39,417 nucleotides of DNA, taken from IMG/VR virus record IMGVR_UViG_2671181055_000004. One strand, 5' to 3'. The notes beneath the pieces are model-generated. The model was given only the letters and a program-made list of their open reading frames with translations, ran no database searches and was not told where the DNA came from. Shown here one piece after another: positions 6,464 to 39,118 of the stretch. Both the position numbers and the translations under genes were made by a program. This stretch comes from a virus (lineage: Duplodnaviria > Heunggongvirae > Uroviricota > Caudoviricetes). Numbering within the stretch: the first letter of the stretch is position 1; each line of letters opens with the position of its first letter.

Positions 6464-6548
6464 GACAGCCTAAGCGGCTGCTGACCTCCCTGACCATGCT
6501 GTAAATCTCTTTATCCTGGTTGTCACAGAATAAGCCCGGTAAAATACG
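6464..6548 (+). mobile_element. IS66-family element, 3' remnant of tnpB (host side of the insertion)
   Basis: 6466-6504 encodes QPKRLLTSLTML-stop, which joins in frame to the truncated TnpB ...GIDWR at 38810 once the shared GACA is counted once. Confidence 0.6.
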
Positions 6549-6798
6549 NNNNNNNNNNNNNNNNNNNNNNNNNNNNNNNNNNNNNNNNNNNNNNNNNNNN
6601 NNNNNNNNNNNNNNNNNNNNNNNNNNNNNNNNNNNNNNNNNNNNNNNNNNNNNNNNNNNNNNNNNNNNNNNNNNNNNNNNNNNNNNNNNNNNNNNNNNNN
6701 NNNNNNNNNNNNNNNNNNNNNNNNNNNNNNNNNNNNNNNNNNNNNNNNNNNNNNNNNNNNNNNNNNNNNNNNNNNNNNNNNNNNNNNNNNNNNNNNNN
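6549..6798. other. Assembly gap (250 N)
   Basis: Run of n characters. Confidence 1.
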
Positions 6799-7166
6799 AC
6801 GTCAGCGGGACCAAGACTGTTTTTTGTGGCAAGCGTCCCCAGACCAAGATAACCACGGGCCAGACGCTGGGCCTCCGCACCGGCATCAGCAATTTCTTTC
6901 AGGTTATTTTTCCGGGAAAAGGCATTCGCAGCGATAATGGCTTTAATGGACAGCGTAAGCTGGTTTAACTGCGCCTTATCCGGCTGAATACTGGCTTCAG
7001 CCAGAATATTCAGCAGTTCGGCCTGGAGAATATTCAGCCAGTCCTGACCAATCCAGCTGATACCTTTTTGTCCGTCACCTTCGGTAAACCAGGTGGTGGT
7101 ATTACTCTGCGCCGGTGCCAGCGCAGGCATATTCGCCACGCCGGAATTATTATCAACATGAAACAT
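6799..7166 (-). CDS. Tail fiber protein, N-terminal constant part (3' truncated by the gap)
   Basis: ATG at 7166; MFHVDNNSGVANMPALAPAQSNTTTWFTEGDGQKGISWIGQDWLNILQAELL... resembles tail-fiber N-terminal domains; the frame runs into the N gap. Confidence 0.7.
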
Positions 7167-7726
7167 TAAATAGTCTCCTCTTCATGGCTGTTTGCATAAA
7201 CGTAAATAAACGTCTGCCATGCAGGCTTATAACGGTTCAGAATACATTCCAGCGCACCGCCTTCATAAATACGCAGCGGCGTGAGAATATCATCCAGCAC
7301 ATTCATATTCCGGTAGCCGGTTTCACTGTTAATCGTGACAATACTGACCCACTGCGAATCCGGTGAGGGCTGAATGTCAATCTGATAACCAAACTCCGCC
7401 GCAAACCGGATATAAAATTCACGGTTCAGCGAGGGCTTCATCCGGTATTTATTTCCGGCATAACGCTGTCGCTCCGTGAGGGTGGCTCCGGCCATATCAC
7501 ACTCGGGAAGCCCGAGATAACGCTCCCAGTCTTCCAGCAGCAGGCGCGACGTGTCAGGGAAACGCTCGGCAAGCAGCTGTTTACCCGTCCAGGATACACG
7601 CGCTGTCGAATGACTGAGGCCCAGACATAATGATGCCAGTACGGATGACGGACGCTTGTCCCATGCCAGCCCGTCAGGCAGTAACTGCAACAGGGCGCGC
7701 TGATGCGGGGTCAGGGTTACAGCCAT
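7166..7726 (-). CDS. Tail/baseplate protein (Mu gp48-like)
   Basis: 186-aa ORF between the baseplate J-like gene and the tail fiber gene; stop overlaps the next start (TAATG). Confidence 0.65.
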   Translation of the reverse strand: MAVTLTPHQRALLQLLPDGLAWDKRPSSVLASLCLGLSHSTARVSWTGKQLLAERFPDTSRLLLEDWERYLGLPECDMAGATLTERQRYAGNKYRMKPSLNREFYIRFAAEFGYQIDIQPSPDSQWVSIVTINSETGYRNMNVLDDILTPLRIYEGGALECILNRYKPAWQTFIYVYANSHEEETI

Positions 7727-8799
7727 GTGATTTCTCCTACCGTCAGCAGCTCACTGTCTCCCGCCTGAACTGACGTCAGCGGACTGCGCACTTCAAAATC
7801 CTCCAGATTTTTCACCCCTGCCACCGCCCGCCAGAAAGACGACGGCAGAACCAGACCGCCGGGCCGGGATTCGTTATACAACAGGTCGGTCAGCGCCTGT
7901 TTTACGGCCGCCTGATTCTCCGGTGTTTTCGGGATGATCCTGATGCTGAAGGGCACCGGCTTATTGGTCAGTTTAAACACGGTCACCGTCGGCCCCAGAG
8001 GCTGTCCGACAGGCTGGCCGGTCGCCGGATCATCATGACTGCGGATATAATCCGCCACCCGCTGAACATCACCGTCACCGGGGAAAATATCCGGGTTATT
8101 ATCCTGAACAAACGTTACCCCCACGCTGCCCGCCTGCGGCCATTCCGGGCGGCACCATGCCCGCGTCACGCCCGGCACTTCACGCGCCCAGCGTTCAAAA
8201 TCATACTGCGTGCCGCCGGACGGTGGATTCTGCACCCGGAAAACCAGACGGGAAAGCAGCTCCGGCACGGTTTCCACATCCGCACCACCGGTGATCCCCG
8301 TTCCGGTCACCGTGGCCGTCTGGTTGATCCCCGCCTGCGGTGTGATAAATGTCAGTTTTGTCCCTGCCGGGGCATTCCCCGCACGACCGGCACTTTCGGC
8401 TTCCACACTGACATTCAGCGTACCGGCCTTACCGGTCAGGGAGGTGGTGATACGGTAAACCACGCCATCACTTCGCTGGAGAAGCACACCTTCCTTGATC
8501 CCCGCATCCGTGGTCAGCATCAGCTGAACCGGCCCGTCCCCCCGAGAGGCAGGCTTACGCATGACGCCCCAGAATGCACAGTGTTTCAGCAGTTCGGCTT
8601 CATCGGCTTCGGTCGGGATGATCTGACGCGCAATCCAGGCCAGATGCTCATGCTCCTGAGCAGATAACCCTGCCTGAGCGTAAGCAATGGCATTCAGGGT
8701 GGTTTCATTCACACCCGGCTGCGAGCCGGGCAGGCGCTGGCTGATATCCTGCTGTGTCTGCGTGATTAACTGTGCCAGCGGTAAAGGCTGATAAGGCAT
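7717..8799 (-). CDS. Baseplate J-like protein (Mu gp47-like)
   Basis: 360-aa ORF in the conserved baseplate position. Confidence 0.75.
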   Translation of the reverse strand: MPYQPLPLAQLITQTQQDISQRLPGSQPGVNETTLNAIAYAQAGLSAQEHEHLAWIARQIIPTEADEAELLKHCAFWGVMRKPASRGDGPVQLMLTTDAGIKEGVLLQRSDGVVYRITTSLTGKAGTLNVSVEAESAGRAGNAPAGTKLTFITPQAGINQTATVTGTGITGGADVETVPELLSRLVFRVQNPPSGGTQYDFERWAREVPGVTRAWCRPEWPQAGSVGVTFVQDNNPDIFPGDGDVQRVADYIRSHDDPATGQPVGQPLGPTVTVFKLTNKPVPFSIRIIPKTPENQAAVKQALTDLLYNESRPGGLVLPSSFWRAVAGVKNLEDFEVRSPLTSVQAGDSELLTVGEITWL

Positions 8800-9236
8800 T
8801 ACTCCCCCTTAAGATCAGCATAAAAAATCATGGGCCTCACTGAACCATCAGGCAGGGTTATGCGCACCGAAAGCGCCAGCCGCGCGTGTCCCACACGTTC
8901 TGCATGACAGACCACGGATGACGCCACGCCATCCTGACTGAGCCAGCCCAGCGCCTCATCCGCGTAAGCACGGGCACGGCTTATCACCGAGGCCAGCGTT
9001 TTTTCCCGGCTGAGAAGCCACAGACGGGAGCCAATGGGGCGCGGGCGAAAACTGTCTCCCCACCATCCCCGGCGGTCGCGCGTACCGTCAGGGATTTCAT
9101 CCGATGCCAGCGCCCGGCGGTCAGTAAACAGCGAAATCAGAACGGCCGTCAGCAGACTGTCATCCGTCAGCAAGTCGGCACCGTTCAGTTGCAGCGAACC
9201 GCACCCCTGATCCCATACAATTGCAATATCAGCCAT
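8799..9236 (-). CDS. Baseplate protein (Mu gp46-like); start set at the internal ATG 9236
   Basis: ATG 9236 with GGAG upstream, overlapping the stop of the upstream gene (ATGGCTGA); the longer frame to 9380 overlaps the previous gene by 150 nt. Confidence 0.6.
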   Translation of the reverse strand: MADIAIVWDQGCGSLQLNGADLLTDDSLLTAVLISLFTDRRALASDEIPDGTRDRRGWWGDSFRPRPIGSRLWLLSREKTLASVISRARAYADEALGWLSQDGVASSVVCHAERVGHARLALSVRITLPDGSVRPMIFYADLKGE

Positions 9237-38015: not shown

Positions 38016-38561
38016 ATGAACAAGCAAACAACAACATCTCTTTCTTTTCCTGGTGGTAGAAAAGAAAGCATTGCTGAGCGTCTGAAAAGGCTGATTGGCT
38101 CCCGCAGCGTCAGAGCTGCAGCAAGAGATTGGGGGCTTTCATTTTCAACACTAAACAATTATCTGTCTCGTGGCACTGAGCCATCCTTAAGTGTCGCCCT
38201 TCAGATTGCGTCTATCGAAGGAGTAAGTGTTGAGTGGCTATGTGGATTCAGTGATGCATCACAAGTGAATCGGTGTGAGATCAAGGAAAATCAAGATGAA
38301 AGCAAGAAGATAATTATGACGATTATCAGCGCACTTGATGAAAAAGACTTAGAGCAGCTATCGAAAAATTTGGTTCTGAATGGAGCCAAGTACTTAGCTC
38401 GGTTGTTAGAGCCTGAAAATCAAGATCTAATCCGCTTAGAAGGAAGGAAAAGAATAGCTGCATTACAGCTTGAAGGTATGTCTGACGAACGCGTCAGAGA
38501 GATTTTGGAAGAAACTGAGAGAAGTCGCAAATCTAACGCGGTAGAACCAAAAGCGGGTTAA
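38016..38561 (+). CDS. c: Prophage repressor (Mu c-like), transcribed toward the left end
   Basis: 181 aa, divergent from ner; N-terminal DNA-binding region, helical C-terminal part; position as in Mu. Confidence 0.7.
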   Translation: MNKQTTTSLSFPGGRKESIAERLKRLIGSRSVRAAARDWGLSFSTLNNYLSRGTEPSLSVALQIASIEGVSVEWLCGFSDASQVNRCEIKENQDESKKIIMTIISALDEKDLEQLSKNLVLNGAKYLARLLEPENQDLIRLEGRKRIAALQLEGMSDERVREILEETERSRKSNAVEPKAG

Positions 38562-38580
38562 TAGCATTAGCCCGCATTTT
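38553..38580 (+). terminator. Hairpin plus T-run at the end of the repressor gene (weak terminator candidate)
   Basis: GCGGG-(13 nt)-CCCGC followed by ATTTT; the stem spans the stop codon. Confidence 0.3.
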
Positions 38581-38633
38581 GCACTATATCGAGTATTTCG
38601 CATTGTTTGGAACGCCTTAAAAGACTAAAACCA

Positions 38634-38807
38634 CAGTATCAAATGAGTTGCCGATTTTATAATAAATGACTAATTATTGCACAATCGGTATCAAATAGAC
38701 CTTATCCGCACATCTAGCCATCACCTGTTTTATTTCAGTATCTTACAGGTGATTTCACCTCCTTTCACTAAACCCCTTGTCGGTATCAAATGATTCACCT
38801 GGTTATA
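38634..38807. repeat. Left-end terminal transposase-binding repeats (three GGTATCAAA-type sites), a 9-bp-stem inverted repeat, and the phage terminus
   Basis: CAGTATCAAATGAG (38634-38647), CGGTATCAAATAG (38685-38697), CGGTATCAAATGATTCA (38781-38797); inverted repeat ATCACCTGT/ACAGGTGAT at 38721-38753; terminus at 38807. Confidence 0.65.
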
Positions 38808-39118
38808 TGTCGCCAGTCGATACCTTCCAGCAGCATCGCCAGCTGCGCCTGTGTAAGGAACACTTTGCCATCACGGGCTGACGGCCAGGCGAAGCGCCCA
38901 CGCTCCAGCCGTTTGGTCAGGAGGCACAGTCCGTCACTGGTGGACCACAGCAGTTTAACCTGACTGCCGCTGCGGCCCCGGAAAATGAAAACATGGCCGG
39001 ACATGGGATCGTCTTTCAGCGCCGTCTGTACTTTCGCAGCCAGGCCGTTGAAGCCATTTCTCATATCGGTGATACCGGCAACCAGCCAAATTTTGATCCC
39101 GGAAGGTAACGGGATCAT
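38795..39118 (-). CDS. tnpB: IS66-family TnpB (orf2), 3' end disrupted: last four codons and stop come from phage DNA
   Basis: MIPLPSGIKIWLVAGITDMRNGFNGLAAKVQTALKDDPMSGHVFIFRGRSGSQVKLLWSTSDGLCLLTKRLERGRF... is a typical IS66 TnpB sequence (recall). Confidence 0.8.
   Translation of the reverse strand: MIPLPSGIKIWLVAGITDMRNGFNGLAAKVQTALKDDPMSGHVFIFRGRSGSQVKLLWSTSDGLCLLTKRLERGRFAWPSARDGKVFLTQAQLAMLLEGIDWRHITR

Follow-up and report, generated by a model that had tools for sequence, protein, structure and literature searches.

A Sp18-type Mu-like prophage in the tnpB gene of an IS66 copy, flanked by a 4-bp target-site duplication

Phage Mu duplicates 5 bp of its target DNA and phage B3 duplicates 6 bp; up to 2021, every described Mu- or B3-like phage had kept TG-CA ends, and TA-TA ends were then reported as new in Leptospira prophages (PMC8705779). 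Among the Mu-like elements of E. coli, the Sp18 lineage has been described in several studies (PMC7430833, PMC2669165, PMC10132054). No circular Sp18 DNA was reported, as for Mu (PMC2669165), and Mu-like phages inserted in Stx phages resemble Sp18 of O157 Sakai, often lie inside other mobile elements and occupy variable sites (PMC10132054). Here we analyzed the 39,417-nt stretch of DNA of IMG/VR record IMGVR_UViG_2671181055_000004 (hereafter the window, meaning the whole stretch). Our results make it very probable that a Sp18-type Mu-like temperate phage of ~38.6 kb transposed by the Mu pathway into the tnpB gene of an IS66 copy in an E. coli-type host. The element is a member of the Sp18 lineage known from E. 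coli O157 Sakai, an already known type of prophage found here in a new and unremarkable location.

The window consists of two contigs, A (1-6548) and B (6799-39417), split by 250 N, and the right side of each is a phage terminus followed by host DNA. The junction reads ...GGTATCAAAAAAATCGCCGCGCTATA / GACAGCCTAAGCGG... in contig A and ...GGTATCAAATGATTCACCTGGTTATA / TGTCGCCAGTCGATACC... in contig B. On the host sides, the reverse complement of 38808-38818 is GACTGGCGACA and 6464-6504 reads GACAGCCTAAGCGG...ATGCTGTAA. When the reverse complement of 38808-39118 was joined to 6468-6504, with GACA counted once, a 348-nt open reading frame (ORF) of 115 amino acids ending in DWRQPKRLLTSLTML and a stop codon was obtained. 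The junction strings quoted in an earlier sequence-only reading of this DNA were exact and the uninterrupted tnpB that it proposed was restored, although the protein is shorter than the ~118 amino acids claimed there. The rebuilt gene has the length of an annotated tnpB (WP_000612591.1) and departs from it only at nucleotides 23 and 181, neither of them near the junction, and by 2 amino acids in the protein. The phage interrupts tnpB behind nucleotide 311, within codon 104 of 115; the predicted TnpB would be cut at residue 103 and continue into a few phage-encoded codons (ORF 38795-39118).

Intact IS66 copies have the same sequence at this place. In E. coli M16807 (locus L001) the site reads GGTATCGACTGGCGACAGCCTAAGCGG, as in the reconstruction, the wider site ...GGTATCGACTGGCGACAGCCTAAGCGGCTG... 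is identical to the rebuilt sequence, and the flank 6468-6548 matches L001 3007-3087 at 81/81 positions. The reconstructed empty site was further compared with IS66 copies of complete E. coli genomes and matched in 3,864 of the 5,426 genomes. The best matches are collinear with it in a single ungapped piece over the junction (99.5-99.7 % identity, 587 nt). The insertion into IS66 tnpB suggested by the sequence-only reading is thereby confirmed, since the flanks rebuild the gene exactly and the alignment to intact copies shows no gap at the junction. Contig A stops 5 nt short of the tnpC start codon (ATG). The window displays a single IS66 copy with two nested insertions, IS600 in tnpA and the prophage in tnpB.

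The complete prophage of strain HH35 (locus L002, 38,626 bp) is 99.4-99.7 % identical to the window over all of both contigs. The end next to the repressor gene (c-end) is ~99.9 % identical to copies in HH35, PO06021, AST46 and others, located at different loci of complete E. coli genomes. Altogether, ten different target loci were found among near-identical and 92-96 % identical copies, rather than one attB. Complete E. coli genomes contain ~230 Sp18-type prophages. One of the target loci is sorM, in which the Sakai RefSeq record annotates "prophage Sp18, Mu-like phage". The closest phage-database records are the regions called "inserted Bacteriophage Mu-like phage" of Stx phages LC727895 and LC727881. 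A MuA-type transposase, MuB, Gam, gpT, a Mu portal, Gin and Mom, together with near-identical copies at many loci, bear out the earlier assignment to the Mu-like transposable phages. The two phage parts of the window (6463 + 32009 nt) and ~160 missing nt add up to ~38.63 kb, to be compared with the 38,626 bp of HH35. The phage looks intact, because its length equals that of copies elsewhere and its long ORFs are all open; that near-identical copies occupy many sites would indicate recent activity.

Three other copies deserve mention. In 23CRST047 (NZ_AP045820.1 867599-912100), 44.5 kb separate the two ends, ~6 kb over the usual span, so that this copy probably holds an insertion. In AST46 (NZ_AP043639.1 near 2051714), the c-end lies in a P2 capsid gene and no right end is found at the distance expected from it, pointing to a rearranged or partial copy. 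In 97-3250 (NZ_CP027599.1 3375800-3377200, L026), a Sp18-type copy within a phage tail-fibre gene adjoins an IS66-like ISCro1 transposase gene and represents another landing of the phage among mobile elements.

The order of the two contigs was examined by alignment to the HH35 prophage. Window 1-1335 aligns directly to L002 7280-8615 and 6799-38807 directly to 8760-40761 (99.4 % identity over 32,010 nt), while 1196-6470 aligns in reverse to 7403-2130. Because of these directions of alignment, contig A is read as inverted relative to contig B in the scaffold. The biological order is the reverse complement of B, a gap of ~160 nt and then A, which is also the order required for read-through of tnpB. 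The gap corresponds to a part of the tail-fibre gene (L002 8600-8759). As it stands, the N run places the IS66 flank of contig A beside the tail-fibre gene of contig B, an impossible native order, and ORFs 6459-7166, 6470-6892 and 6520-6852, which are listed across it, are artefacts.

The same alignment shows that the ~1.3-kb segment at the start of contig A, which resembles the invertible G segment of Mu, is flipped with respect to the HH35 copy, as expected of a segment that Gin would invert. In the orientation of the window, the fibre gene would continue into 1-362, with the assembly gene (414-935) coming next. The gin-proximal gix-like site reads TTCCTGAAAACC TC GGTTTACGGGAA, presumably close to the gix sequence of Mu. 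Window position 1 coincides with the central TC of a gix-like site and with the first base common to both inverted repeats. The outer ends of the contigs fall in repeats, A starting in the inverted repeat and B ending 104 nt into IS600, and the right end of contig A lies 85 nt into IS66. We take the layout to be that of a short-read draft in which the scaffolder mis-oriented contig A. The assembly would have broken at the invertible tail-fibre segment and contig A would have been scaffolded in the wrong orientation; a break at position 1 would be accounted for because the assembly graph branches there if both G orientations are present in the culture. The inversion of contig A in the scaffold is probably due to that of the G segment, the scaffolder perhaps having been misled by read pairs from the other G orientation.

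Could the layout be real? A DNA inversion after insertion, between the outer gix site beside the tail-fibre gene and a place in IS66 just downstream of tnpB, would have turned round the block from gin to the right end, and the 250 N would hide the recombinant joint. The start of contig A exactly at the central TC of the gix-like site, an N run that begins 44 nt past the tnpB stop and a layout of A(+) then B(+), the expected product, all agree with such an event. However, the best gix-like score in the 600 nt of IS66 around that spot is an unconvincing 15/26, an assembler faced with both G orientations would begin a contig at the first base that the inverted repeats have in common, and outer contig ends in repeats (inverted repeat and IS600) are those of a short-read draft. 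We consider a real inversion unlikely; whichever reading of the layout holds, the insertion itself is unaffected.

Several points nevertheless weigh against a simple insertion by the proposed pathway. A simple insertion would not give the order of the window itself (A then B, with host DNA to the right of both), the junctions are located on separate contigs and were found in no complete or species-representative genome searched, and both motif binding by the transposase and the 4-bp stagger are deduced from sequence alone. When the junction queries 38660-38960 and 6330-6548 were compared with the 5,426 complete E. coli genomes, no record covered at least 80 % of either. The c-end junction had 0 exact matches when one genome of each species was scanned, and the IS600/IS66 tnpA junction, which would mark the unoccupied allele of the locus, was sought in complete genomes and none was found. 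With the junctions on separate contigs and the insertion absent from the complete genomes searched, the contigs might derive from two prophage copies or two IS66 copies, the rebuilt tnpB being a coincidence; some E. coli genomes do hold up to 4-5 copies of this phage end, and IS66 occupies a median of 3 places per complete E. coli genome. But the flanks meet at the same nucleotide of a 2.5-kb IS with an exact 4-bp overlap, for which chance would offer about 1 in several thousand positions, and unbroken contigs from phage to host would not be expected with several differently flanked copies, so that a two-copy origin is very improbable. By far the likeliest is that both junctions belong to one insertion, a linkage which is inferred and not observed, because the flanks abut exactly with the 4-bp overlap typical of the lineage and because each contig runs from phage to host without branching.

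The length of the duplication was established from other insertions of the lineage. Intact IS66 contains GACA once, with no adjoining TA and no extra base at the site; the TATA tips are therefore part of the phage, which leaves a duplication of 4 bp. Both junctions were read in nine further independent insertions besides that of the window: HH35 (dgcE, TACG), S1-CAM-01-A (bcsA, GACG), CI5 (xdhA, TGTG), 23CRST047 (elyC, TAGA), 600029 (sgrR, AACA), Sakai Sp18 (sorM, TAAA), FDAARGOS_293 (an aminopeptidase gene, ATCA), F1273 (nadB, CACG) and 97-3250 (a phage tail-fibre gene, ACAT). The AST46 copy was left out of the count, its right end not being at the predicted distance. The flanks are reverse-complementary over exactly 4 nt in 10/10 insertions and the 5-nt register fails. 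A scan of lengths 2-8 in the first six insertions retained only 4, save for 2 nt in CI5, where a palindrome makes a trivial match. The procedure was also applied, as a control, to the Mu prophage in E. coli W and B-766, where it gave 5 bp (GCCGC), not 4, in line with the 5 bp that the sequence-only reading had ascribed to Mu. Judged from these junctions, a fixed 4-bp duplication is a property of the lineage.

That reading had given GACA as the duplication, which all ten insertions support, and had left room for 5 bp with one mismatch, which they do not. A canonical Mu duplication (CGACA / AGACA) that gained its single mismatch after insertion is suggested by the alternative alignment and by the 5 bp made by Mu and most of its relatives (PMC8705779), but it is hardly credible: the phage would have to end in ...TAT and not ...TATA, the TATA (or TACA) tip in all 10 insertions fits only the 4-bp register, and intact IS66 has no extra base at the site.

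Both termini recur outside the window: the right terminus is followed by unrelated host DNA in the 9 other insertions, and the c-end terminus is found in other insertions as well. The motif RGTATCAAAW occurs 6 times in the window for 0.34 expected. All copies share one window strand and lie no more than 175 bp from a terminus, the outermost copy beginning 26 nt from each tip. Counted inward from the tip, the sites lie at ~19, 41 and 76 at the right end and at ~19, 114 and 166 at the c-end. The right end therefore has three close-packed sites, and the c-end one isolated terminal site and two distal ones, a layout which resembles that of the packed R1-R3 and split L1/L2-L3 sites of Mu. By homology with Mu, the copies of RGTATCAAAW are putative transposase-binding sites.

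The right tip is ...GCTATA-3' in all insertions read. The termini of the window copy are 5'-TATAACC...GCTATA-3', whereas those of the Sp18/O157 type are 5'-TGTAACC...GCTATA-3', the ends of Sp18-type prophages reading TRTAACCAGGTGAATC... and ...CGCCGCGCTATA. The c-end tip (window 38801-38807) is thus polymorphic, with ...GGTTATA in the sub-type of the window and ...GGTTACA in the Sakai Sp18/O157 type (L009, L022, L024 and L026 compared); both sub-types make 4-bp duplications. Canonical 5'-TG...CA-3' termini are not those of the window copy, which has TA at both tips. For annotation, Sp18-type ends should be sought as TRTAACC...GCTATA plus 4 bp, and not as TG...CA plus 5.

The 4-bp duplication and the TA tips are solid facts of sequence. 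In the literature that could be searched, which did not include subscription journals or the original Sakai papers, no paper was found to connect a 4-bp duplication with Mu-like phages or to describe the ends of Sp18. That the Sp18 type is an undocumented natural variant, a MuA-family lineage with 4-bp strand joining and 3'-terminal TA, seems to us about evenly balanced. If true, such a variant would help to ask what sets the target stagger in DDE transpososomes. Because its MuB is 48 % but its MuA only 23 % identical to the proteins of Mu, a near functional relative of MuA/MuB, the transposition machinery studied best, with a constant 4-bp duplication and TA tips would offer a natural contrast for structural and biochemical studies of strand-transfer spacing.

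A pathway may be proposed in which the biochemical steps, the role of the motif and the cause of the scaffold layout are borrowed from homology with Mu; gene content, ends, exact target reconstruction and the 4-bp rule come from the present analysis. The IS66 copy hit by the phage would already have been disrupted by IS600 in tnpA. By analogy with Mu, the MuA-family DDE transposase (A) would assemble on the three sites of each phage end and nick the 3' tips of the phage. With target DNA bound by MuB, the 3' tips would then be transferred to both target strands, at phosphates staggered by 4 bp, and gap repair would yield the GACA duplication. The right end terminates in the dinucleotide TA and the c-end in TA or CA. 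As a genome feature, this is a further insertion of a prophage type that is common in E. coli and already named, and another case of mobile elements landing in one another.

Gene assignments were made by Pfam, PHROG and NCBIfam scans and from the RefSeq annotation of the near-identical HH35 prophage; all features are collected in Table 1. The transposase can be aligned with MuA from end to end (23 % identity, E 1e-13), its HTH_Tnp_Mu_1 and Mu-transpos_C domains exceed the Pfam gathering scores, and a search of PDB sequences found only the N-terminal domain of MuA and retroviral integrase cores. The MuB-type gene adjoins the transposase gene. Mor, lysozyme, tape-measure, baseplate and Com proteins are further named in the HH35 annotation. 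Between the ner-like and repressor genes, a near-perfect palindrome (AAATTTGATAACTAA / TTAGTTATCAAGTTT), possibly an operator, is present at 37856-37887 and has a core, TTGATAAC, similar to the end motif TTGATACC.

GC content is 52-64 % in most of contig B and 42-47 % close to both phage ends and in the cargo block of contig A. The low-GC region 2055-5187 also carries a 97-aa ORF on the opposite strand. A megablast comparison of the cargo block with the phage database, in which LC727895 and LC727881 with their Sp18-like copies are included, gave no close match, and none of the cargo proteins, nor Com or Mom, received a name in the NCBIfam scan. The SASA/DUF6645-DUF1378-DUF826 trio is presumably similar to the NanS-p esterase region that lambdoid prophages carry downstream of stx. 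Rfam (gathering thresholds) and ARAGORN found nothing in the window. RefSeq annotates a "tRNA-OTHER" at 23226-23305 of HH35 L002 (about window 21265-21344), and neither ARAGORN nor Rfam detected one at the matching place of the window.

Table 1. Features of the 39,417-nt window. Positions are those of the window; + and - refer to the strand shown and its complement, and a dot marks features without a strand. TSD, target-site duplication.
Feature	Position	Strand	Evidence
Invertible G-like segment	1-1319	.	inverted repeats 1-142 and 1178-1319, gix-like sites
Tail-fibre C-terminal part	1-362	+	within G-like segment
Tail-fibre assembly gene	414-935	+	Caudo_TAP / PHROG tail-fibre assembly
Alternative fibre end	~967-1336	-	within G-like segment
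Gin-type serine DNA invertase	1397-1969	+	Pfam Resolvase 1.6e-51, HTH_7; PHROG 125 DNA invertase 1.9e-94
Low-GC cargo between gin and com	2055-4726	+	GC 42-47 %; Pfam, PHROG, HH35 RefSeq
SASA-esterase/DUF6645 protein, 684 aa	2055-4109	+	Pfam DUF6645 7e-68 (C-terminal), SASA 1.5e-13; PHROG 143
DUF1378 ORF	4254-4436	+	Pfam/PHROG scans, HH35 RefSeq annotation
DUF826 ORF	4472-4726	+	Pfam/PHROG scans, HH35 RefSeq annotation
com-mom DNA-modification module (com 5444-5644, mom 5598-6335)	5444-6335	+	Pfam Mom 1.6e-77; PHROG 1384; Com/Mom annotation in identical copies
Right (mom-side) terminus	6381-6463	+	RGTATCAAAW at 6381, 6416, 6438; last base 6463 (...CGCCGCGCTATA)
TSD copy GACA, right side	6464-6467	+	GACA once in intact IS66
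IS66 host flank: last 37 nt of tnpB (6468-6504, TAA stop) and 44 nt of tnpB-tnpC spacer	6464-6548	+	81/81 to L001
N run	6549-6798	.	unsolved contig join; neither phage nor host sequence
Prophage main body: constant tail fibre, baseplate, tail, head, lysis/late, early regions	6799-38807	- except repressor gene	HH35 L002 alignment, annotation
gpT major head protein	18499-19446	-	Pfam/PHROG scans
Mu portal	22667-24256	-	Pfam/PHROG scans
Gam	32612-33142	-	Pfam/PHROG scans
MuB-type AAA+ transposition ATPase	34495-35436	-	Pfam Phage-MuB_C 7.8e-25, AAA_22; 48 % to Mu B
MuA-family DDE transposase, 695 aa	35510-37597	-	Pfam Mu-transpos_C 2e-17, HTH_Tnp_Mu_1 1e-8; PHROG 310 1.5e-211
Immunity region: Ner-like and repressor genes, divergently transcribed	37600-38561	.	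NCBIfam, PHROG
Ner-like regulator	37600-37830	-	NCBIfam SfsB/Ner-like 7e-15
Repressor	38016-38561	+	PHROG 3037 transcriptional repressor 4.5e-60
Left (repressor-side, c) terminus	38635-38807	+	RGTATCAAAW at 38635, 38687, 38782; last base 38807 (...CACCTGGTTATA)
TSD copy (TGTC on plus, GACA on minus strand)	38808-38811	-	GACA once in intact IS66
IS66 tnpB, first 311 of 348 nt	38808-39118	-	empty-site match, WP_000612591.1 comparison
IS66 tnpA 3' part	39115-39313	-	annotated tnpA match from query position 105 = window 39313
IS600 (IS3 family) end, interrupting IS66 tnpA	39314-39417	-	98 % over 104 nt to L001 IS600; contig ends inside

On the side of the target, the locus compares closely with known IS66 elements. 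The host flanks are 99.5-100 % identical to annotated tnpA/tnpB, the two genes overlap and TnpB has 115 amino acids. Unlike an intact IS66, the copy of the window has been interrupted by IS600 in tnpA and again by the prophage in tnpB, and the window comprises neither tnpC nor the ends of the IS.

Sakai Sp18 has gene order, end motifs, right terminus and a 4-bp duplication (TAAA in sorM) in common with the phage of the window. O157-type copies are 95-96 % identical over the com-mom right end, and the Mu-like phages of LC727895/LC727881 show ~92 % DNA identity over ~90 % of a 24.8-kb query spanning the early to head genes. The sub-type of the window differs from Sp18 by TA in place of TG/CA at the c-end tip and by the SASA/DUF6645 cargo, which megablast did not find in the phage database. 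In the complete E. coli genomes searched, no insertion at this IS66 tnpB site was found.

With Mu, D108 and SfMu, the phage has in common the set of repressor/ner, A, B, gam, mor, lysis, head and tail genes, an invertible fibre segment with gin, and com-mom. Its MuB homologue is 48 % identical to that of Mu, each end has three sites with Mu-like spacing, and insertion is random with a short duplication. It differs from Mu by a transposase of 23 % identity, a duplication of 4 bp and not 5, and TA termini in place of CA. The end-site motif TTTGATACC also differs from the Mu end site, GTTTCAYT...CGAAA. Similarity to SfMu is limited to 71.5 % (~600 nt) over only 3 % of the 24.8-kb query. The genus Muvirus (Mu, D108, SfMu), whose threshold is ~70 % similarity over the genome, was tried as a placement and rejected on this value and on the divergent transposase. 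The distinct lineage that the sequence-only reading had deduced from an end motif unlike that of Mu is well founded, both SfMu and MuA being distant; the motif itself is real and non-random.

The B3/D3112-type phages and the TA-TA phages of Leptospira are likewise transposable, with a duplication (6 bp) that departs from that of Mu, and the Leptospira group has TA termini (PMC8705779). These phages carry B3/Tn552-family transposases and duplicate 6 bp, whereas the phage of the window combines a MuA-family enzyme with a duplication of 4 bp.

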